Position numbers and translations under genes: made by a program. A stretch of DNA of 37,837 nucleotides from a virus (taxonomy: Duplodnaviria > Caudoviricetes), in IMG/VR virus record IMGVR_UViG_3300012347_000374, positions 1 through 37,837 of that record; one strand, given 5' to 3'. Every line of letters begins with the position of its first letter. The first letter of the stretch is position 1. Below the pieces are notes generated by a model. The model was not told the DNA's origin and did no database searches. It worked only from the letters and a program-made list of their open reading frames with translations. Positions 5,122-34,915 of the stretch are shown here, in pieces.

Positions 5122-5625
5122 ATGAAAATGAGGGCTTTAAAAGCGGCAGTTTTTGCCATGGTGTGCGTTGTTTTTACAGGCTGCGCGTCCACCAACTACT
5201 CAAAAAACCCAAACCCAGCCACCATCACTGAATACTGGCTGAGAAGCGCTCCAGCCACATGGGAAGGCGTGAAGGTTTTTAGAATCAATGACGTCGAATA
5301 TGGCTACGTCCACGACAGCAACGGAGAAACCTATACAACCGACCACGGCAAAACAGAGATTCAGGTTTGGTTTACAGGTCGAGAAGCCACCGATTCATTT
5401 GGCGAAATGCCCAAACAAACAGACTTGGCAGACCTAAGCGCAACTTTAGAGCCCAACGGCGAGTACCACCTTGACATCGCAAAAGACGCGGGCCTCATAA
5501 AAATCAGCCTGGTCAACACAAAAACAAACATCACCGTTGCATCGACAAACCCACTCAAAACCGTGAGAAGGCGACCCGTGATGGATAGAACAACGGTTTT
5601 ACCGCTACCTATACCGGCCAAGTAA
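5122..5625 (+). CDS. Lipoprotein in the immunity region (possible superinfection exclusion)
   Basis: Signal peptide with lipobox-like FTGC; TATAAT at 5101 and AAAGGA RBS; lower GC; function inferred from position only. Confidence 0.65.
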   Translation: MKMRALKAAVFAMVCVVFTGCASTNYSKNPNPATITEYWLRSAPATWEGVKVFRINDVEYGYVHDSNGETYTTDHGKTEIQVWFTGREATDSFGEMPKQTDLADLSATLEPNGEYHLDIAKDAGLIKISLVNTKTNITVASTNPLKTVRRRPVMDRTTVLPLPIPAK

Positions 5626-26800: not shown

Positions 26801-27776
26801 ACTGTGTTGACAAGACCTGTGGCGCGTAACCGTCAAGCACAAATCCATTTGGGAGGCTGAACTTATGCTGCGGTGTGCTTTGGTAGTTTCCAACGTAGTA
26901 AAGGCCATTGAACGTGGCAAAGTTTGTGCCGTTCGTTGCCGAAATGCTTGAGTTTGCCTTGAGGATGGTGGTGTTGTTCAACACACCAAAAGCCGCGCCA
27001 ATACCGGCGTTTGCGCCTGCGCTGTCGCCAGTGTGGTCGAGGATCATGTTATCCACAATCATTTGCATGCGACCCGCTGCAAAGTAGAACGATGCGTTTG
27101 AGCCCTGCACCTCAACAAATCGCGCATTGTTCATGCGGAATTTGCCTGTCATTGCGCCTGTGGCCGTTCCGGTCCACATATTCGAGCCGCCAGCTCCGCC
27201 GTTGTTCCAGCTTCGGCAGTAGAACGTAGGGCCAGCAGTCTTTAAGAACTGCGTGCCGTTGACGAGGTAGCCGCCGCGCAACTCGCCCAAGATGGTAGAG
27301 CCGTCAAACTGCCACCGGCCTAAATCGCCGAAGTACAAGCTCCATTGTCCAAAATCGAACACTGCACCAGAAACAATGTTGTTCCACAGAACGGTTAAAC
27401 CGCCGGGAAAGTGAATCATGGGCTCGGTGGTAACCACCAGCGAGTTGCCCATGCCTGCGTTGATGATGTCTTGCGGCGTGTTGTAGTCTGTCGCGCCCGA
27501 TTGAGAGATTGTCAGCGTTGAGCCGTATTTACTGGAAACCAAAACGGCAACAGTGCCAGTCGTGCCAGTAAAGTTCACAGCCGCGCCAGATGCGTTGACC
27601 ATTTGCACGCTGGTGTTGGCCACAATCGTGCCAACGCGAGCACCAGCAGGAATGCCCGTGCCGGTGATGGACGCGCCAACAACCCAACCGCTAGTCGCAG
27701 TCACAGCCAAAGATGGGCTGCCGTTTGTCGCAGTTACGTTTTGCGTGGTCCCAGTCAATACAGCGCTAAATGTCAT
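23886..27776 (-). CDS. Giant Ser/Thr/Gly/Asn-rich beta-structured protein (putative virion appendage or adhesin)
   Basis: 1296 aa, no signal peptide, beta-helix-like repeats (GSTLNITNGS/GSTLNMSDS/GSTWNISNS), C-terminal VN...V.GTG...EWGP. Confidence 0.7.
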   Translation of the reverse strand: MTFSAVLTGTTQNVTATNGSPSLAVTATSGWVVGASITGTGIPAGARVGTIVANTSVQMVNASGAAVNFTGTTGTVAVLVSSKYGSTLTISQSGATDYNTPQDIINAGMGNSLVVTTEPMIHFPGGLTVLWNNIVSGAVFDFGQWSLYFGDLGRWQFDGSTILGELRGGYLVNGTQFLKTAGPTFYCRSWNNGGAGGSNMWTGTATGAMTGKFRMNNARFVEVQGSNASFYFAAGRMQMIVDNMILDHTGDSAGANAGIGAAFGVLNNTTILKANSSISATNGTNFATFNGLYYVGNYQSTPQHKFSLPNGFVLDGYAPQVLSTQFLGGFSNGTTETYSNINLDTAGWGLNDLKTKYLRYGGTNVLNFPRTVSFQFNDSTAANLSDVTLYIKSGSTSLVNAVQAGDYSAATQALILNWTTSISSYRVCDSFVDTISQVAQFRKNGYISQSVSYSLNTAAYSQPVFMLSDPAYGSVTPAQAAALTGLSLDYTNDIYTVSTAHNLDEVYAFGQYSQALTANSTQADFQASAGGKYSLISPWKMNVTGGALTMGTYNNTFNSSTAWTFGNTSSLNLNKDDVVWTPSVRADLFQFQSGSTLNITNGSSLTVSPTAGLGYGAAATSEFRSGSTLNMSDSTVTYNIVSGGSGTVFSNSEAGSTWNISNSTLTLNCPNGAQVAIHAYFLPASVINNFTVNGTASNVIWQMGYTSNNSKMVGFKYGGAIFGNGTSNILMDTYTYTGALTTIPNTFGSANKWYWVDPVMNAGGLFRWAAGATATGSSGFYGVIGFRPTISTDKDGYAPKVRFTPSAMATRYPAFQVQTAALSTLALSSFFRDPTFMGASDGFLPFVDSLDDKTVINTINWTADFRQKGWLANSVTFTAATAKKGLVTYTASGAVDANYINDTTGAADAALITVNETTKIIAAATGTLAWSAQRMYNAIINKWASFAIEQNIVAASTGGTLSLADYTVDESIRFVRGLTTDLVSQVRTTGIIESQANEIPVADVNGSRASVTGLDPQGFGVTWFLRWQKAGTTTWTTASGTGNSTQIVVDAAEYTLQARVRGYDWKTVTLDATLSLSIDLSLAYHISANNTPQYTMAFDAALEAIFNFDETSNKVSVANSTDGILSPGFAELYQATQRIQHLPDLVWTWTSPVTANSTSQKIIIPTGNPISMYLTDASTNTVKITCPVIHADTGASADDRVRGNPSGYSIILGSPATAESAGLASQIISALGGANYLSTLHGLSVIKAKVDAIPADVLAAAATTPIAANIKYVNDVPVDGTGAEGDEWGPASEVAP

Positions 27777-27779
27777 TTC

Positions 27780-28145
27780 TTAACCCTTGAAATAGTGCGA
27801 GCGGCCAAACAAGCGCACCGCCAAATACATGAGCACACGGGTGGCAAGGCTCACGCCCAGCACCTTCATGGCTTCCAAAAAAATATGGTCACACTCTTTG
27901 CGTGGCCTTGTGCATTCGCCATAGAGGTAGTCGTGGACGATGGCCGCATAAGCCCACGGGCCATGAGGGGGGAACACACCCCACAACAGGCGTGGCACGC
28001 TGGCAAAGTCGGTCACAAAGCCAACGGGCACCTCAATCACATCGGTGCTGGGTAGCTCTCCAACGTGATAGTCGAAGGGCGCAGCCAGCCGAAACTGGTA
28101 GTTGCCCAAGAAATCGAGTCGCGGTGGCTTGGTGAAGCTGCTCAT
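27780..28145 (-). CDS. DUF1353-domain protein
   Basis: VP.GFVTDFASVPR, AAIVHDYLY, D.IFLEAM, MYLAVRLFG. Confidence 0.9.
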   Translation of the reverse strand: MSSFTKPPRLDFLGNYQFRLAAPFDYHVGELPSTDVIEVPVGFVTDFASVPRLLWGVFPPHGPWAYAAIVHDYLYGECTRPRKECDHIFLEAMKVLGVSLATRVLMYLAVRLFGRSHYFKG

Positions 28146-28152
28146 AGACACC

Positions 28153-29298
28153 TCAGAAAGTTTTGGCGATGCGAAAACCAATGGCGTTGCCTGCCTTGGC
28201 GGTGGCCACACCGGCGCGGGTGGTGGCGTTGTCGTGGCTGCGTGTGGCTTGCACGATGGTGTGCAGGCCATCGGACCAATCGGTGCGCCATGCCACGTTG
28301 GTGGTGGGCACATCGACGCGCTGAAAGTTTGGCGCTTTGGCGTAGGTGGTGACGTTGGTGTACTGGCTCAGTCCCAATGCAATGCTGTGGCTTTGCGCGG
28401 GTTTGTAGATGGCCTCGATGGTTTTGCTTTGGCCGTCCCACGCATAGGGCAGCGCGGGGTTGGTTTGGTTGCCTACATACGAGGCCACAGAGCCACGCAG
28501 GGTGAGGTTTTGCAGCGGGTTGCCCTCGATGGCGATGTATCGGGTGTCGTAGTCGAGGCGGCGCTCATAGCTGCCGGTGTCGCTTTTTTGGTTTTGCAGT
28601 GTCTTGAGCAAGGCCACGCGAAACTGCACGCCTGTGGGCAAGTGCATGGCGTTGATGCTTGCGCCCATTTTTTTGTGCAGCGTGTTGGGGCCAACTTTGA
28701 CGTAGGGGCCGAGCTTGTCGCTTTGGCCATCGACCTCGGGGCGGTAGATGCCAACCATGCTGTCCACCATCCAGCCACCTGCAATGGCCGAATGAAAAGC
28801 CTGCGCGCCAAATGCGCCTTGGGCCAGCTCGTTCAAGCCATGAAAGCGGCAAAACGCGTCGGGCTCGGCCATCCATGGGCTGTTGGCGTCATAGGTGCGA
28901 CACCAGCTCGTTTTGTAGGGCAACACGCCCACGCGCACGCCTGTGCTGTCGGTGATGCGCACGGATGCGTCTAAGCGGTCCACACGGCTGCCAATGAGTG
29001 TGTGGTGCTGGCCTTGGGCGGTGAAGGTGACGGGGCCAAGGGCTGTGTCTACCTCATGCGATGCGGTGGCCTTGGCCCACTGGCTGAATGGGGTCCACTC
29101 TTTGCCATCGGGCAGGCTGTAGTTGGGCAAATAGCGCACAGAGGTGGTGGGCACGCTCCATGCGTCTAGGCCAACGGTGGCGGTGGCTGTGAAGGCTTGG
29201 GCGCTTTGGCTTGACATGACGCACCACATGGCCAGCAGCCACAGTGCAGTGCCTACCCAAAACTTGGAGATGCGAAATTTAGAAACACGGCGCAACAT
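28153..29298 (-). CDS. Porin-like outer-membrane beta-barrel protein
   Basis: Signal peptide ending AQA, alternating amphipathic strands, RVG..PY...PW..P segment, C-terminal IGFRIAKTF (terminal Phe). Confidence 0.7.
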   Translation of the reverse strand: MLRRVSKFRISKFWVGTALWLLAMWCVMSSQSAQAFTATATVGLDAWSVPTTSVRYLPNYSLPDGKEWTPFSQWAKATASHEVDTALGPVTFTAQGQHHTLIGSRVDRLDASVRITDSTGVRVGVLPYKTSWCRTYDANSPWMAEPDAFCRFHGLNELAQGAFGAQAFHSAIAGGWMVDSMVGIYRPEVDGQSDKLGPYVKVGPNTLHKKMGASINAMHLPTGVQFRVALLKTLQNQKSDTGSYERRLDYDTRYIAIEGNPLQNLTLRGSVASYVGNQTNPALPYAWDGQSKTIEAIYKPAQSHSIALGLSQYTNVTTYAKAPNFQRVDVPTTNVAWRTDWSDGLHTIVQATRSHDNATTRAGVATAKAGNAIGFRIAKTF

Positions 29299-29746
29299 CG
29301 CGGCCCCCAATGAAAAATGATGTGTAGCCCACAGCGGGTGGGTTGGCGGCAACTTTGTCAATGAGCTGCGATTGCGTTTGCACCACACGGATGCCGCGAT
29401 CGACAAGGCCCGTATCGCTGGCCATGCGCTCTGCGGCTTCGGGGCTCACGCCCAGCTCTGCAAATGCAGCGCGAGTGTCGGGGTGGTTGGCAGGCAGCAT
29501 GACGACCAGCAGCCATTGACGGCCAATGAGCACGGGCTGGCCACCGTAGGCTTGCACCAGGTCGAGGCGGTTGATGCGGTAGCGTGGCGCTTTGCTTGTG
29601 GGGGCTTGGGCCAGCTCAAAGTCGCTGCCCTGCTCAGCTTTGGCAATGGCCACGCGGGTGGCTTGCGATGTGCTGCACAGCCACTCGATGGCGTGCGCCT
29701 GCAAGCAGGCCAAGCCGATGGTGATGGTGGCAATGATGCGTTTCAT
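29279..29746 (-). CDS. Small periplasmic substrate-binding-like protein (single-domain, phosphate-ABC SBP-like)
   Basis: Sec signal (AHA); LP..HP and LIDKVAANPPAVGY motifs typical of ~140 aa SBP-like proteins encoded beside porins. Confidence 0.65.
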   Translation of the reverse strand: MKRIIATITIGLACLQAHAIEWLCSTSQATRVAIAKAEQGSDFELAQAPTSKAPRYRINRLDLVQAYGGQPVLIGRQWLLVVMLPANHPDTRAAFAELGVSPEAAERMASDTGLVDRGIRVVQTQSQLIDKVAANPPAVGYTSFFIGGRDVAPCF

Positions 29747-29749
29747 TGT

Positions 29750-30166
29750 TTAACGGCCAGTGCGCATGGCTTGGCTGATAGAGCCGATTTGCTGGCCAAT
29801 GGTGGCCACGGATGCTGCTATGTTGTCGAGCTTGGCGGCTTGGTCTTTTTGGGCTTGCTTGACCGCGGTGACATCAATTTGCAGCACTTGCATGTCGCTG
29901 GTTTGTTTGGTTTGGTCAGCTTTGACTTGATTGATGGACTGCACCGAAGTCTCAACAGTGGCCAAGCGGTTGACCAGCTTTTCTTGCTCGCGCGCTTGGC
30001 CCATCAAGAACCAAACGAGCGCGGCCAAGCCAACAAGCTGGGGCCAGTATTTGTTGATGCCACCGAAAGTGATAGCGCCTTGCGGCTGTGGGGTTGCGTT
30101 CATTTTTTGGGCCTCCAAAAGCTGTTGAAGTAGCAATTCAGTTGGGTCGGGTTTGCGCTTTGTCAC
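29750..30166 (-). CDS. Single-TM coiled-coil protein
   Basis: TM LVGLAALVWFLMG followed by ~80 aa Gln-rich heptads. Confidence 0.7.
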   Translation of the reverse strand: MTKRKPDPTELLLQQLLEAQKMNATPQPQGAITFGGINKYWPQLVGLAALVWFLMGQAREQEKLVNRLATVETSVQSINQVKADQTKQTSDMQVLQIDVTAVKQAQKDQAAKLDNIAASVATIGQQIGSISQAMRTGR

Positions 30167-30173
30167 GGTGGGC

Positions 30174-30632
30174 TCAGATGTAGGGGCGTGTGCCGGTTTT
30201 GTCGATGATGAGTTTTTGGCCGCGTGGCTTGTCTTTTGCGCCGTTGGGCACGCTGATGTGCGTCCAGCCGCCGCCCAGCAGCGGGTCAGAAAACTCTCGG
30301 ATGATTTGGTCGAACGGCACTTTGGCTTTGATGCAGGCTTGCACCACTTCGTTGGGCGTCATGCCCGGCACTTTGAAGTCAGCGGCGCAGCCGATGCGGT
30401 GCTGGCTGGTGTCTTTGCTGCCCACGCTGTCGTTGACGGCCTTGCTGCGGTAGCCGCTGCTAATCATCACGGGCTTGCCACCCACGGCCACTTTGACAAA
30501 CTCCAACAGGTAGGCCAAGCGCAACAGGTTGGCCAGCTCGTTTTGGTTGGGGGTGTTGTCAAGGCCAAGGCGTGCAGCGTTGTCGCTGTGCGTGAGCTCA
30601 GCCAAGGTGAAGTGGTCGGTGAGCTGGGTCAT
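30174..30632 (-). CDS. Endolysin, peptidase M15A family
   Basis: HFTL.EL..S, ISSGYR...N..VG....SQH..G.AAD, W.HIS. Confidence 0.92.
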   Translation of the reverse strand: MTQLTDHFTLAELTHSDNAARLGLDNTPNQNELANLLRLAYLLEFVKVAVGGKPVMISSGYRSKAVNDSVGSKDTSQHRIGCAADFKVPGMTPNEVVQACIKAKVPFDQIIREFSDPLLGGGWTHISVPNGAKDKPRGQKLIIDKTGTRPYI

Positions 30633-31135
30633 TTGGCCGCCAGTGCGCCGTGTAGCGCGTCTGTTTTTTCTTTGCTGCCAGAGCTGCTGCCGTAGTGGTA
30701 GGCCAGCACCATGGTGGCGATGGCGTCGAGCAAGCCCAAGATGCGGCCAGCCACAATTTCGGGCACGGCGGATGGGTAGCCGTTGAACAGCACCCACAGC
30801 TCTGCACCCAAGGTGACGACCAGCAGCAGGCACGACATGACAAACACCTTGCCCGATGTGCCACCGGCCACGGCGGCGTCACGCGCACCTTGGCGGTCAG
30901 CCACTGCCAGCTTGGCAAAGTCGAGGCCAAGCTGATCGGCTTGCTGTTGTAGCTCTGCCTCGGCCTGCTTGAATGCGGCCATTTGCTCGGCGCTCAGTGT
31001 GTTGCCCGCGATGGCTTGCTTGACATCGGTGGCGCTCATGCCAGTGGCTTTGCACAGGCTGTCGATGGCCATGCCAGCCAACGGGCCGCCAAGCGCGGTG
31101 GCGATGGTGGGGGCAAGTTGTTTGAGCCAATCCAT
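30629..31135 (-). CDS. Putative holin (GTA 3TM-holin-like)
   Basis: MDWLK.LAPTIATALGGPLAG, DR..AR, two C-terminal TMs, YHYGSSSGS. Confidence 0.7.
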   Translation of the reverse strand: MDWLKQLAPTIATALGGPLAGMAIDSLCKATGMSATDVKQAIAGNTLSAEQMAAFKQAEAELQQQADQLGLDFAKLAVADRQGARDAAVAGGTSGKVFVMSCLLLVVTLGAELWVLFNGYPSAVPEIVAGRILGLLDAIATMVLAYHYGSSSGSKEKTDALHGALAAK

Positions 31136-31137
31136 GT

Positions 31138-33048
31138 TTATGCGCTCCGGTCTTCGGTGGTGTATTCGGTGACGGTGGCTTTGATTTCGCCGTCTTTGTC
31201 GCGCTCCACGGTTTGGCGTGCCTTGACAGGGTGCTGCACCACGACTTGGGCGGCGGGCACTTCATTGGTGACGTTGACCACGGGGGCTGCGTTAGTCATG
31301 CGCACGATGGGCGCGGCCACGTTGACGATGGGCGCGGGCTGGTCTGGCACGATGATTTGGATGGGCATTTCTTCCAGCTGTTTGACCCACGCATCGCGCA
31401 AGTCGTTGAGCATCCGCTCGGCGCTTTCTTCGATGCTCTTGGTGTTGAAGTTGACCTGTGTGGCAGGCTGTTGGATGGTGATGGGGGCTTGACCGCGCTC
31501 AGCCATGGCACGCACCATGTCGATGAGGGCTTTTTGTGTGGTGTCGGCGGGTGCGGGTGTGGTTCCGGTTGCTGCACCATTGCCATTGGCGGGGGATGCG
31601 CCAGGTGTGCCGTCATACGCGTTGAGGTTGACGTTGTATTCCTTGGCCAGTGCTTGCGCGGCGGCGATGGCTTTGAGGGTGTCTTCAAAGTCGTAGCCCA
31701 TGCTTGAGCAAAGGTCTTGCGGGCTGATGAGGCCAGCTTTGACGCTGAGAATTTTGGCTTCCATGTCGCCTTTGGGGTCTACCCAATCCCAGCGGCGGGC
31801 TTGCCATTCGTGCTTTTTGAATTTGGCGATCTTGCTGGCTGGCAGGGCTGAGCCGTTGTTGAGGGTGATAGCGCCCGACAGCAGCGAGGTTTGCAGCCAC
31901 GCTTGGAACACGGGCTCCATGAACACGGCAATAAACCACTCTTGGTCTGCGGCCCAGCGGTCGCGTTCTTCTAACGTGCCGCTGCGGATGGATGAAAAGC
32001 TCACGCCCTCAAGGTCGTTGGCCAGCGAGTGGTAGGCCACGCGCCAACCGGTGGCAATGCGCTGCAAGGTGGTTTTGACGAAGGGGCCGAATGTTTCGTT
32101 GGGGTAGCGGCTTTCATGCGGCTGGAACGTCACGCCTGTGGGCAATGTGTCGTACGTGCCCGGCTGCGAGGTGGTGATTTGTTGGCCGTTTTCAGTCTGG
32201 CCCAACATGGGCGCAGCACCATCGGGCGTGGTGAAAAAGCCGTAATGGTTCGCGCCATGCTCTGCGGCCAGCAAGGCTGACAGCTTGAACGCGCCCAAGT
32301 GGTGCAGGCTGAGCATGGATGGAGCCATCCATGGGATGCCGCGCACTTGCTCTGCACGTTCTAGCTTGAAACGGTGAATGGTGTCTTCGGTGCTCACGCG
32401 CACGCGGCGGCGGCTGCTGCGCGTGCCATCGTTGGGGTGGGCTTCAAACAGGTGCAAGGCCACGGGCTTGCGGTAGGCGTTGACTTCCACGCCCATGATG
32501 ACGGTGTTGCCTGCGTGCGAGCCGTTGAATGTGGTGTCGATGCGGTCCACATCGATGACTTGCAGGGCAAAGTTAAAGCGGTTGCCAGCGTCAGCGCCGC
32601 GCACCATCTTCACCAAAAACTCACCATCGCTGGGCAAGCTGCCCACGATGTTTTCGCAAAGGTCGCGCAGGGTTAACTGACCGGTCACATCACACGCTTG
32701 GGACCATTCGGCCCATGCTTTTTCGATGGCATCGCCCGCGCCTTTGTCGGGTTTGCCGGGGCCGTCTTCGGGGCGGCTTTGCAGGCGAATGCCGCTCGGG
32801 CCTACGATGTTGTTTTGCACCATGCCCACAAACTTGCGGGCGTAGTCGTTGTTGTTCACCAGTTGACGGCCACGTTGGCGCAGGCGGTCAAGGTCGCCCA
32901 TCAGCTCTTGGTTGATCGAGCTGGCTGTGGCAAACCAATCGCCACTCAGGCGGTCAAGGCGGGCAGCGGCAAATTGTCGCACCAAGCCTTGGGTGGGCTT
33001 GGCAAAGATTTGTTTGGCGCGTTGCCACATGGATGGTTTTTGTGTCAT
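31138..33048 (-). CDS. Portal protein, lambda family, with long C-terminal extension
   Basis: LR.R.R.L..NN.YA, DGE, QVRGIPW, DL.GV.FSSIR.G.LE, W.WVDP..D. Confidence 0.93.
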   Translation of the reverse strand: MTQKPSMWQRAKQIFAKPTQGLVRQFAAARLDRLSGDWFATASSINQELMGDLDRLRQRGRQLVNNNDYARKFVGMVQNNIVGPSGIRLQSRPEDGPGKPDKGAGDAIEKAWAEWSQACDVTGQLTLRDLCENIVGSLPSDGEFLVKMVRGADAGNRFNFALQVIDVDRIDTTFNGSHAGNTVIMGVEVNAYRKPVALHLFEAHPNDGTRSSRRRVRVSTEDTIHRFKLERAEQVRGIPWMAPSMLSLHHLGAFKLSALLAAEHGANHYGFFTTPDGAAPMLGQTENGQQITTSQPGTYDTLPTGVTFQPHESRYPNETFGPFVKTTLQRIATGWRVAYHSLANDLEGVSFSSIRSGTLEERDRWAADQEWFIAVFMEPVFQAWLQTSLLSGAITLNNGSALPASKIAKFKKHEWQARRWDWVDPKGDMEAKILSVKAGLISPQDLCSSMGYDFEDTLKAIAAAQALAKEYNVNLNAYDGTPGASPANGNGAATGTTPAPADTTQKALIDMVRAMAERGQAPITIQQPATQVNFNTKSIEESAERMLNDLRDAWVKQLEEMPIQIIVPDQPAPIVNVAAPIVRMTNAAPVVNVTNEVPAAQVVVQHPVKARQTVERDKDGEIKATVTEYTTEDRSA

Positions 33049-33710
33049 GCGAAAAGCGCCTCTTGGTTTTCTGGTGTTGGCTTTTCGGGCGCAAAAAGCT
33101 GGCCTTGCGCAACAGCTTGCTCAATGCGCTTGCAGGCGATGTCAAAGTATTTGGGTTCACGCTCAATGCCGATGAACTTGCGGCCCATTTGCATTGCTGC
33201 AACGCCTGTCGTGCCGCTTCCCATAAATGGGTCTAGGATGGTTTCAGGGTTTCCAGCTTGTTCTATGCACCATTTCATTAAGGCAAGTGGCTTTTGTGTC
33301 GGGTGGCCAACACGCTCTGGGTTTGTAGCTGCAATAGTCCACTGAAAGTAACCAGCTAACTTATCCATATTTGTCCAAGCAAGCTCAACGCGGCTAAACG
33401 ACTGAGGGCCGTCTGGTTTATGCCAAACAAGCCAGCGCCGAGAAGGTGGCAACTGAAAATAATTTCCACCCCACAAAATTGCTTTTTCTCCTTTGCACAA
33501 TATTTCATTAAGCATTGACTTTGTAGGGGCTGATTCATCCCAATCTTTTTTTTCAGCGCCATTCATTCTTTGATGTTTAAATGGTTGCGCAGCAATGTTT
33601 AAACCATAAGGCGGATCAGTAATAACCGCATCCACCTTTGGCAGCGTAGGCAGCACATCAATGCAGTCGCCCAAGTAAAGGGTGGCATCACCAATTTGCA
33701 CGGGGTTCAT
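33045..33710 (-). CDS. Orphan DNA methyltransferase (N6-A/N4-C, beta class)
   Basis: TDPPY, HPTQKP, LDPFMGSGTT, GIERE..YF. Confidence 0.93.
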   Translation of the reverse strand: MNPVQIGDATLYLGDCIDVLPTLPKVDAVITDPPYGLNIAAQPFKHQRMNGAEKKDWDESAPTKSMLNEILCKGEKAILWGGNYFQLPPSRRWLVWHKPDGPQSFSRVELAWTNMDKLAGYFQWTIAATNPERVGHPTQKPLALMKWCIEQAGNPETILDPFMGSGTTGVAAMQMGRKFIGIEREPKYFDIACKRIEQAVAQGQLFAPEKPTPENQEALFA

Positions 33711-34564: not shown

Positions 34565-34915
34565 CTATTTTCCAAAAATGATCTGACGAATCCGGCGCTC
34601 ACTCAACTGGTGGCGGCGAACCAAAAGCGGGATGCGCTCACCGCGTTGCCAATCGGCCAAGATGCGTTGGTCGCGTTTGCTTTTGTAGTCTGCGCCGCCG
34701 TTGGGGCTGATGTAGGGGCGGTCGCCAGCCCAATCTTGGTGTGCCTCTTTGCTGACTTGTGCAATGAGCGCTGCGCCGAAGTCGGGCTTCATTTCCAGCA
34801 CACGGCGCAGCACATCGTCGATGATGCTGCCATCGCGCGGGGTGAATTGCTCGATGTCGGTTTGTGCAGCGTCTGGTATGGCGCGGCGAATGTTTTTTGC
34901 TGTCGTAGTTACCAT
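34565..34915 (-). CDS. Mor/C-family late transcription activator
   Basis: W.GDRPYI, RD..I..DW..G.....L.RRH.LS.RRIRQII. Confidence 0.82.
   Translation of the reverse strand: MVTTTAKNIRRAIPDAAQTDIEQFTPRDGSIIDDVLRRVLEMKPDFGAALIAQVSKEAHQDWAGDRPYISPNGGADYKSKRDQRILADWQRGERIPLLVRRHQLSERRIRQIIFGK

Follow-up and report, generated by a model that had tools for sequence, protein, structure and literature searches.

Among the described systems closest to the locus reported here is VpvABC of Vibrio cholerae (VC2456-VC2454), in which a porin, a small periplasmic binding protein and an inner-membrane partner, a membrane diguanylate cyclase (DGC), are encoded in one operon and vpvAB has been suggested to form a separable sensing unit (PMC12456836). 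The phage trio that we describe comprises a transmembrane (TM) coiled-coil protein (the rod), a half-sized binding protein (the lobe) and a porin. We liken VpvA and VpvB to the phage porin and lobe by description, not by sequence, and we draw a distinction between VpvABC or chromosomal Cache-GGDEF-EAL cassettes, which have a receptor and an enzyme, and the phage trio, which has a bare single-TM coiled coil in their place.

To our knowledge, the phages that sense the outside late in infection are few, namely those with lysis inhibition of the T4 type and a few others. In T4, a single-TM N-in/C-out protein (the holin T) and a periplasmic partner with a signal peptide (RI) time lysis on an outside cue (PMC11413866), an arrangement with which the trio may be compared. 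We found no sequence or fold link between the two, and RI and T work without a dedicated porin. Moreover, the periplasmic domain of T is not a bare coiled coil.

Here, we propose, tentatively and as the best of the available readings, that the trio is a late-expressed relay from the outer to the inner membrane that tunes lysis. An initial annotation had suggested either a non-spanin route to outer-membrane disruption or an envelope sensor or uptake device influencing lysis timing; it is partly supported, with sensing and lysis timing as the best-fitting branch. In the literature outside subscription journals, we found no account of a phage form of the module.

A three-gene block among late genes

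The window, by which we mean the whole 37,837-nucleotide stretch of phage DNA analysed, encodes an integrase (profile scan of its ORFs) and carries the trio among the following features:

30629-31135, - strand: holin-like membrane protein, 168 aa (PHROG family 1544, which has no known function; putative holin)
30174-30632, - strand: endolysin, peptidase M15 (PF08291, E 2e-17; phrog_894)
29750-30166, - strand: rod gene, encoding a 138-aa TM/coiled-coil protein, GTG start
29993..30049, - strand: hydrophobic segment of the rod, about residues 40-58, weak (Kyte-Doolittle 19-mer mean 1.1)
29279-29746, - strand: lobe gene, encoding a 155-aa signal-peptide protein, predicted to fold as a single PstS-type (PBP type II) lobe
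29399..29419, - strand: lobe loop, residues 110-116, predicted from model contacts to enter the porin lumen and touch L3
28153-29298, - strand: porin gene, encoding a 381-aa signal-peptide protein with a predicted 16-stranded barrel and a C-terminal Phe
28819..28917, - strand: porin loop L3, residues 128-160, with invariant Cys133 and Cys150 and acidic residues (alignment)

For the porin we use 28153-29298, a longer TTG ORF from 29406 being a mechanical call only. As first annotated, the three genes follow the holin and endolysin in tight coupling, with gaps of 7 bp (endolysin-rod) and 3 bp (rod-lobe) and a 20-bp overlap (lobe-porin). The lobe does contain KVAANPPAVGY, but near its C-terminus and not at the very end, as had been stated, since 14 residues lie beyond it. 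A scan of 27500-31500, in itself weak evidence, agrees with the earlier view that the trio has no separate promoter: it found no sigma-70-like promoter, against an expectation of 0.8, nor any - strand terminator before 27904.

The trio lies inside the structural-gene range in GC and GC3 and is under purifying selection (dN/dS 0.08-0.30 against relatives L001 and L015). This selection, together with 77, 84 and 24 homologous proteins and a conserved gene order, argues that the trio is not due to chance. None of the three proteins received a significant family name from Pfam, PHROG or NCBIfam.

The trio is a gene block common to many unrelated uncultured phages. A TM coiled coil lies 5' of the lobe in all 16 phage-type relatives and a porin follows the lobe in 15 of the 16; two contigs that begin inside the porin (L016 and L017) are excluded from these counts. 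In L014, a 34%-GC contig with a ribonucleotide reductase, the order is rod, lobe, lysozyme, and the 10.8-kb fragment holds no porin. In 17 of 17 phage-type contigs the trio is on the same strand as, and tightly abuts, late genes. According to the porin tree, the module has passed among lambda-like, P2-like and other phage types, and one copy (L027) belongs to a prophage within a Limnohabitans genome.

The initial annotation proposed a search for conserved linkage to lysis genes. In 10 of 13 lineages, at most two genes separate the module from a holin, endolysin or spanin gene, and the endolysins belong to four families, but in the other three (L003, L008/L019 and L020) the module follows the portal gene and the fetched DNA has no lysis gene. 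Fibre- or spike-like genes flank the module in at least 9 of the 13 lineages by our own reading, about as frequently as lysis genes do. Given the portal-side lineages and the fibre-like flanks, the association may reflect a general hot spot for accessory genes.

Three of 12 loci (L024-L026) were 37-residue matches with no gene context and were dropped as spurious, and an apparent porin-PBP fusion (L126) was excluded because it is a truncated porin whose reading frame continues into another signal peptide. There was no match by tblastn against deposited phages or against plasmids, and scans of viral contigs with divergent queries gave no further contigs.

The predicted porin-lobe pair and its chromosomal relatives

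The initial annotation expected a barrel and a binding-protein fold, and structure prediction gives both. The porin is modelled as a 16-strand barrel (pLDDT 89) with a signal peptide, antiparallel strands, a long L3 and, as annotated, a final Phe. Its fold matches are OprP (Z 25.2, rmsd 3.6, 308 aligned), DcaP (24.1) and general porins (23-24). L3 is its most conserved stretch. The lobe is predicted to fold as one PBP-II lobe (4gd5, Z 10.7, rmsd 2.2, 104 aligned); its mature chain of 136 aa aligns to residues 108-216 of 4gd5, i.e. to one lobe with no two-lobe cleft, and its Cys24 and Cys154 are invariant. A BFVD fold search with the lobe gave no matches at E<=0.001.

Docking of the two proteins, which had been put forward for multimer modelling, is likewise predicted, with a complex score of 0.86 against 0.44 for the best of three controls. 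By rough counts, made with our own alignments, 116 of 157 complexes of solved structure attain this level, against 2 of 215 pairs of mismatched proteins. The runs share at least 96% of contacts, with a partner pLDDT of at least 71. In the model, the lobe docks under the periplasmic face of the porin and plugs the lumen from inside. It touches each of the 7 periplasmic turns, the two termini and L3; the 7 remaining extracellular loops are free of contacts. Interface residues of the lobe are the more conserved ones (0.80 vs 0.71, p=0.025), with p=0.053 when a wider alignment is used; the porin shows no such difference (0.65 vs 0.67, p=0.78). PDB sequence searches found no similar complex and only chance matches. 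A porin-lobe unit with a linked rod is, in our judgement, probable.

Pairs of a half-PBP and a porin had been said to adjoin signalling enzymes in bacterial chromosomes, and some signalling enzyme is indeed present in 15 of 20 fetched chromosomal loci, and in 13 of the 20 the porin is directly followed by a dCache_3 receptor. One cassette type, made up of half-PBP, porin and Cache-GGDEF-EAL, resembles VpvABC. Homology links the phage lobe to the chromosomal half-PBPs (hhalign 96.5%, E 8e-10), from which it differs as a long-branch clade with added cysteines. The phage porin and the chromosomal partner porins are of the same fold class, but their profile similarity is not significant (hhalign 1.8%, E 0.027, across 100 columns around L3).

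In the nearest chromosomal relatives, the receptor's place is taken by a subtilase or is empty, a point against the relay reading. The closest cellular ones are Comamonadaceae loci with an S8 subtilase, a half-PBP and a porin (L021-L023, L028, L029, L036-L038 and L103-L107), for which we found no description in the literature. They share the gene order and about 27% (lobe) and 25-30% (porin) identity with the phage trio, but have no coiled-coil rod and usually have a secreted subtilase upstream. These loci fall inside phage diversity in the lobe tree, and separate from phage copies in the porin tree, which has no outgroup. The phage trio was likely captured from a bacterial porin and half-binding-protein sensing unit resembling VpvAB.

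The rod and the spanin question

The rod consists of one short hydrophobic segment, an 80-aa heptad coiled coil (heptad p<0.002) and a basic tail, and its sequence makes it likely an inner-membrane protein with N-in/C-out topology. This topology is uncertain in that the hydrophobicity of the segment is low and, in the window copy, three K/R lie just C-terminal of it against one N-terminal. The C-terminal part measures 72-95 aa in 14 of 15 rods, although distant rods are only 16-30% identical to the window copy. In L015, the lobe, porin, holin-like protein and endolysin are 94-99% identical and the rod only 32%, which argues against a sequence-specific interaction of the rod with a partner and fits a plain strut. 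A PDB sequence search with the rod returned generic coiled coils only, and profile scans of this 138-aa protein found no GGDEF, EAL or kinase domain or other enzymatic output. With Lpp chemistry in mind, a peptidoglycan link through the rod C-terminus was considered and dropped, only 4 of 15 rods ending in Lys.

Rz/Rz1 spanins have a type II membrane protein with periplasmic helices next to lysis genes, a topology that the rod may share, but the trio has no lipoprotein partner and its outer-membrane part is a barrel. The initial annotation saw a lysis cassette without an o-spanin lipoprotein and placed the trio where spanins should be. As to the first point, a six-frame lipobox scan, which recovered the o-spanin in 3 of 3 P2-like relatives as positive control, agrees: it finds no lipoprotein on the late (-) strand of the window or in the trio, and hence no lipobox for a unimolecular spanin (a lipoprotein with a C-terminal TM) in either. 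In 10 of the 13 lineages, too, the fetched DNA shows no o-spanin. Disruptins such as phiKT gp28 are small cationic amphipathic peptides encoded near lysis genes (10.1101/515445); the intergenic space of the late strand near the cassette holds no candidate ORF of 30-90 aa.

The second point is not supported. All three P2-like carriers retain embedded Rz/Rz1 beside the trio, and the porins of these carriers do not form a single clade (AU p=2.5e-5). Because the trio coexists with Rz/Rz1 on separate branches, it probably does not serve to rupture the outer membrane. In addition, the o-spanin is missing as well from the fetched DNA (2-12.5 kb) of 16 of 16 contigs that have the same holin but no trio, so its absence does not call for the trio as an explanation.

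Might the trio nevertheless be a tether between the two membranes that aids rupture, a non-lipoprotein spanin analogue with the rod as i-spanin and the porin and lobe as outer anchor? The i-spanin-like topology and the conserved length would suit this role, as some 80 aa of coiled coil reach about 12 nm and the lobe adds about 3 nm. Spans of this order are known for periplasm-crossing complexes. The widespread absence of an o-spanin and the exchangeable rod of L015 also favour a tether, as do weak matches of 2 of 33 rods to Rz-like PHROGs (E 3e-4 and 5e-4), although the window rod has no match to the Rz family in Pfam and PHROG scans. Kongari et al. raise the possibility that an outer-membrane protein (OMP) could serve as o-spanin, but also count 91 of 677 phages without a spanin (PMC6139136), and the same-holin contigs have neither trio nor o-spanin in the fetched DNA. 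With Rz/Rz1 intact in the P2-like carriers, no porin in the 10.8-kb fragment of L014 and a rod of only 44 aa in L020, we regard the tether as unlikely; were it correct, the trio would be a barrel-anchored spanin substitute, a device proposed but not previously found.

Sensing, lysis timing and other possible roles

How, then, might the trio act as a relay that tunes lysis? It would be expressed with the late operon, with which its genes are co-oriented and tightly coupled. The porin would sit in the outer membrane with the lobe docked beneath, loop 110-116 being pressed against L3 in the predicted complex. The coiled coil, to judge from its position, the conserved rod length and the loss of the receptor, may replace the Cache-domain receptor and contact the lobe. 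Since there is no enzyme to drive, the output would fall on inner-membrane lysis proteins, as a delay or a trigger, much as T4 RI acts on holin T; this is the weakest step. Candidate cues are adsorbing phage or a small released molecule. In a bolder form, which we consider possible but doubtful, the trio would be a portable, enzyme-free antenna that the phage installs across the envelope, with the porin reading the medium, the half-PBP relaying and the rod setting the time of lysis.

Alternatively, the plugged porin could trap or block superinfecting phage, or the pair could jam VpvAB-type c-di-GMP signalling of the host. The predicted plug, the lack of an output enzyme, the frequent fibre-like neighbours and the movement of the module between lambda-like, P2-like and other phages would all be compatible with exclusion or a decoy, but a late-operon position without an own promoter is late for exclusion and the invariant need for the rod is left unexplained. 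A host system to jam also appears uncommon, as lobe relatives occur, on a loose look, in at least 3 of 401 genomes of the family and at least 6 of 127 of the genus of the named host-borne carrier. We judge this role unlikely.

The uptake device of the initial annotation, here a module that would raise late replication by taking in phosphate or another anion, fares worse. The top fold matches, OprP and PstS, and the conserved Arg residues on the barrel strands point towards it, and cyanophages (P-SSM2, Syn19) provide a phage-borne periplasmic binding fold in PstS (7xg8, Z 8.6 with the lobe). That PstS is two-lobed with an intact site, whereas the window protein is a single lobe, and the margin of OprP over DcaP and general porins is only 1-2 Z units. 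The phosphate-binding motif of PstS is RxDGSGT. In the lobe, its position is occupied by LPANHPDT according to a transitive alignment whose second alignment is weak (12%), used because the profile of the phage lobe could not be matched directly to four PstS sequences (0.3%). As only one lobe is present, the motif is replaced and the pore is predicted to be plugged, and as a scan of 30 window ORFs revealed no permease, uptake is very unlikely.

Lc and NmpC are phage-borne lone porins of lysogenic conversion without periplasmic or inner-membrane partners. That the trio is such a moron, expressed from the prophage, is highly improbable: the integrase in the window, the Limnohabitans prophage and the mobility of the module would allow it, but in each of the 17 phage-type contigs the trio shares the strand of late genes and abuts them tightly, its GC and GC3 are in the structural-gene range, the weak scan found no promoter, and the module also occurs in L014.

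Thus, we return to the late relay that tunes lysis as the preferred reading. If it is correct, a mobile three-gene block under purifying selection would add a new route of late-infection sensing, and in the bolder form this sensor would be common to lambda-like, P2-like and larger phages. The predicted contact between porin and plug may extend to the chromosomal cassettes. The trio would, in that bolder form, also be the simplest genetic handle on the VpvAB-type signal, and lysis time would give a simple read-out for finding it.

Gene layout and spread of the trio

The window record is 97% complete (CheckV) and codes for an integrase, a lambda-type terminase and portal, and capsid and tail genes. 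On the minus strand, the late genes run portal, 168-aa holin-like protein, M15 endolysin, trio, DUF1353, 1296-aa unnamed protein, capsid and tail. The coordinates of the trio, its 7- and 3-bp gaps and its 20-bp overlap are as initially annotated, with the porin starting at ATG 29298 (381 aa); the overlap also occurs in 9 relatives (starts assigned by eye).

Genes discussed here
29750-30166, minus strand: rod, 138 aa
29279-29746, minus strand: lobe, 155 aa
28153-29298, minus strand: porin, 381 aa
23886-27776, minus strand: 1296-aa Gly/Thr/Ser-rich protein between the lysis block and the capsid gene
33045-33710, minus strand: DNA methyltransferase between the head-tail joining gene and the portal
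34565-34915, minus strand: Mor-family late activator, after the terminase
5122-5625, plus strand: 167-aa lipoprotein directly behind a repressor-like gene; no Pfam match

The 1296-aa protein, which has no significant match in Pfam, PHROG or NCBIfam, is possibly a head fibre or spike. Its kin adjoin the trio in the relative loci L001/L002, L010, L016 and L020. The methyltransferase is missing from that position in L001 and L015. The 167-aa lipoprotein is a candidate superinfection-exclusion protein.

Collections of viral, metagenome and genome sequences were scanned for relatives, which yielded 16 phage-type contigs that extend upstream of the block, a further 2 that are truncated and 5 chromosomal loci; 3 further matches were dropped as spurious, and searches of deposited phages and plasmids gave zero matches. 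A TM-coiled-coil gene lies immediately 5' of the lobe gene in all 16 phage-type contigs, and a porin gene follows the lobe gene in 15; L014 has rod, lobe and lysozyme, the porin being absent from its 10.8-kb, 11%-complete record. The rod profile was made from these same loci, and the independent check is the measurement of heptads (p≤0.006 in 14 of 15 rods) and length (a C-terminal part of 72-95 aa in 14 of 15; 44 in L020). The genes are conserved under selection: measured against L001, dN/dS is 0.08 for the porin, 0.15 for the rod and 0.30 for the lobe. Carriers include lambda-like, P2-like and Phage_portal_3 types and one 34%-GC contig with a ribonucleotide reductase. One, L027, is a prophage within a Limnohabitans genome, which hints at the host group rather than identifying the window's own host.

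Five loci have, adjoining the trio, a small gene (85-111 aa) that is alike by eye and is usually followed by a long tail-like protein; a PHROG search of four copies gave no match.

Copies of the small gene
L003: 8438-8755
L015: 9156-9491
L018: 3069-3326
L019: 4863-5159
L020: 2525-2818

Lysis neighbours and spanins

Once near-copies are merged, 13 lineages remain. In 10 of them, no more than two genes separate the trio from a holin, endolysin or spanin, the endolysins belonging to four families (M15, GH108, phrog_669 and phage lysozyme). With a chance rate of 0.2 the binomial p is 1.6e-5, and with 0.33 it is 1.5e-3, these rates being assumed and the lineages non-independent. In L003, L008/L019 and L020, the trio follows the portal, and these short contigs show no lysis gene; fibre- or spike-like genes, by our own reading and mostly without family matches, lie beside at least 9 of the 13 lineages. 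Because such neighbours are common and some short contigs show no lysis gene, the trio is tied to the late lysis/fibre region rather than demonstrably to lysis itself, and it is probably expressed late.

The initial annotation noted that an o-spanin lipoprotein is missing from the lysis cassette and supposed that the trio might stand in for spanins. The first point agrees with a six-frame lipobox scan, which found no lipoprotein on the late strand of the window, the sole credible one in the window (5122-5625, plus strand) not being Pro-rich. The second is not supported. Three carriers keep an Rz-like gene beside the trio (L004, E 4e-10; L005, 2e-9; L027, 1e-21), each overlapped by a Pro-rich lipoprotein. 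A quick tree speaks against a single clade of their porins (AU p=2.5e-5), and thus the block has been exchanged among phage types and has lasted beside spanins. As a control, 18 contigs were found by way of the holin-like protein of the window; the trio is missing from 16 of them (L041-L056), and in the 2-12.5 kb fetched for each of these 16, no o-spanin was seen, although this set includes several near-duplicates and a spanin might be encoded elsewhere. Several also bear a small TM and coiled-coil gene. For Kongari et al. (PMC6139136), spanins were not found in 91 of 677 phages, and an OMP is suggested as able to act as o-spanin. A missing o-spanin is ordinary for this cassette type; the idea that the trio is a tether stays only a rival, and an unlikely one. 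L006 alone has, immediately 5' of its rod gene, a 201-aa lipoprotein (287-892) that is without family match and not Pro-rich.

Predicted folds and chromosomal relatives

The initial description of a barrel protein with an SBP-like partner is borne out by the models, which predict a porin-type fold and a PstS-type one-lobe fold. The porin model (AlphaFold2, 74 sequences, pLDDT 89) has a signal helix and 16 strands, and it matches OprP (Z 25.2, rmsd 3.6, 308 aligned), DcaP (24.1) and general porins (23-24), with 234 Foldseek matches at E≤0.001. The lobe model (pLDDT 80; just 2 of 5 models good) aligns with a single lobe of the PstS-type fold (4gd5 residues 108-216, Z 10.7, rmsd 2.2, 104 aligned), its ten best structure matches being phosphate-binding folds throughout, and is weak by Foldseek (best E 0.003). 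In agreement with these folds, a language-model search put Porin_4 on 40% and PBP_like_2 on 46% of the members of nearby clusters. The phosphate-binding motif of PstS, RxDGSGT, pairs with LPANHPDT of the lobe in a transitive alignment whose second alignment is weak. Heptads are strongly marked in the rod, and its one hydrophobic segment is weak; a charged N-terminus would favour an N-in/C-out orientation, as would a Lys that in most relatives immediately precedes this segment.

Modelled as a pair, porin (36-381) and lobe (20-155) gave a complex score of 0.86 against 0.44 for the best control. Of 157 solved complexes, 116 attain the mark for this score, as do 2 of 215 mismatched pairs; both counts are rough here (own alignments). 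Runs share at least 96% of contacts, with partner pLDDT of at least 71, which supports porin-lobe binding as a prediction. The lobe is predicted to plug the barrel, touching every one of its seven periplasmic turns, its two termini, residues of the lumen and the point where L3 begins but no other extracellular loop; on the lobe side, contact is most certain at residues 112-115. In the lobe, the interface is better conserved than the rest (p=0.025), whereas the porin shows no such difference (p=0.78). That such a trio is an exclusion or jamming device is rather improbable, next after the tether. Less probable again is an uptake module.

Among 400 genomes of the class, 27 gave a match to a broad lobe profile (E≤0.01); the tally takes in the centre genome and three others marked as unpublished, which are used for no other result. 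In the 20 chromosomal regions fetched (21 of the 28 other matches), a porin-like gene lies beside the lobe in 19, and a dCache_3 receptor directly follows the porin in 13 (12 with GGDEF-EAL, one cut by a contig end); one region has a kinase and one a response-regulator GGDEF-EAL instead. The point in the initial annotation that SBP-porin pairs occur beside signalling enzymes in chromosomes holds. The phage lobe is homologous to these half-PBPs (profile comparison 96.5%, E 8e-10); between phage and chromosomal partner porins, homology was not significant.

Within Comamonadaceae, lobe relatives occur in 3 genomes of the family (401 searched) and 6 of the genus (127 searched), each count including the prophage carrier. 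These loci are nearer to the phage trio, mostly with an S8 subtilase upstream and without a rod; one is flanked by a CHASE2 kinase operon and a CHASE8-EAL gene, L028 has two tandem porins, and in genome G391 the porin lies elsewhere in the genome.

Comamonadaceae chromosomal loci with S8 subtilase, four-cysteine half-PBP and porin
L021-L023, L028, L029, L036-L038, L103-L107

Since their lobes nest inside the phage lobes in the lobe tree (support 96/86, long branches), these loci may have returned from phages.

A proposed sensing unit in phages

According to PMC12456836, VpvABC is a porin, a periplasmic binding protein and a membrane DGC whose signal is unknown, with vpvAB put forward as a separable sensing unit; an earlier paper (10.1101/2021.10.04.463056) gives VpvA and VpvB as of unknown function, and PMC12051071 lists the locus tags. 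The layout so described is the same as that of the chromosomal cassettes, a likeness by description rather than by Vpv sequences. Our literature search, with subscription journals outside its coverage, found no description of the phage form.

We suggest that a sensing unit would have shed its enzyme and acquired a membrane rod of fixed length that would contact the lobe, while staying in the late region. The simplest, if tentative, reading of such a trio is a relay that would act on lysis proteins of the inner membrane. T4, where a signal-peptide periplasmic protein acts on a single-TM protein and delays lysis (PMC11413866), offers a precedent. Counting against the relay, and suiting a strut, is an apparent rod swap: the rod gene of L015 (7104-7553) is a distant allele (32% identity), amid lobe, porin, holin-like and endolysin genes that are 94-99% identical. 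A contig of sequencing run X4 over window 29708-30150 likewise has a gap at the rod gene. A lysogenic moron is the least probable reading: as first annotated, no separate promoter was seen for the trio (no promoter-like sites were found nearby, at a chance expectation of only 0.8), and its GC (0.54-0.62) and GC3 (0.63-0.75) match those of structural genes. The trio is probably a VpvAB-like unit rewired by phages, and its output may be a relay to the lysis proteins of the inner membrane.
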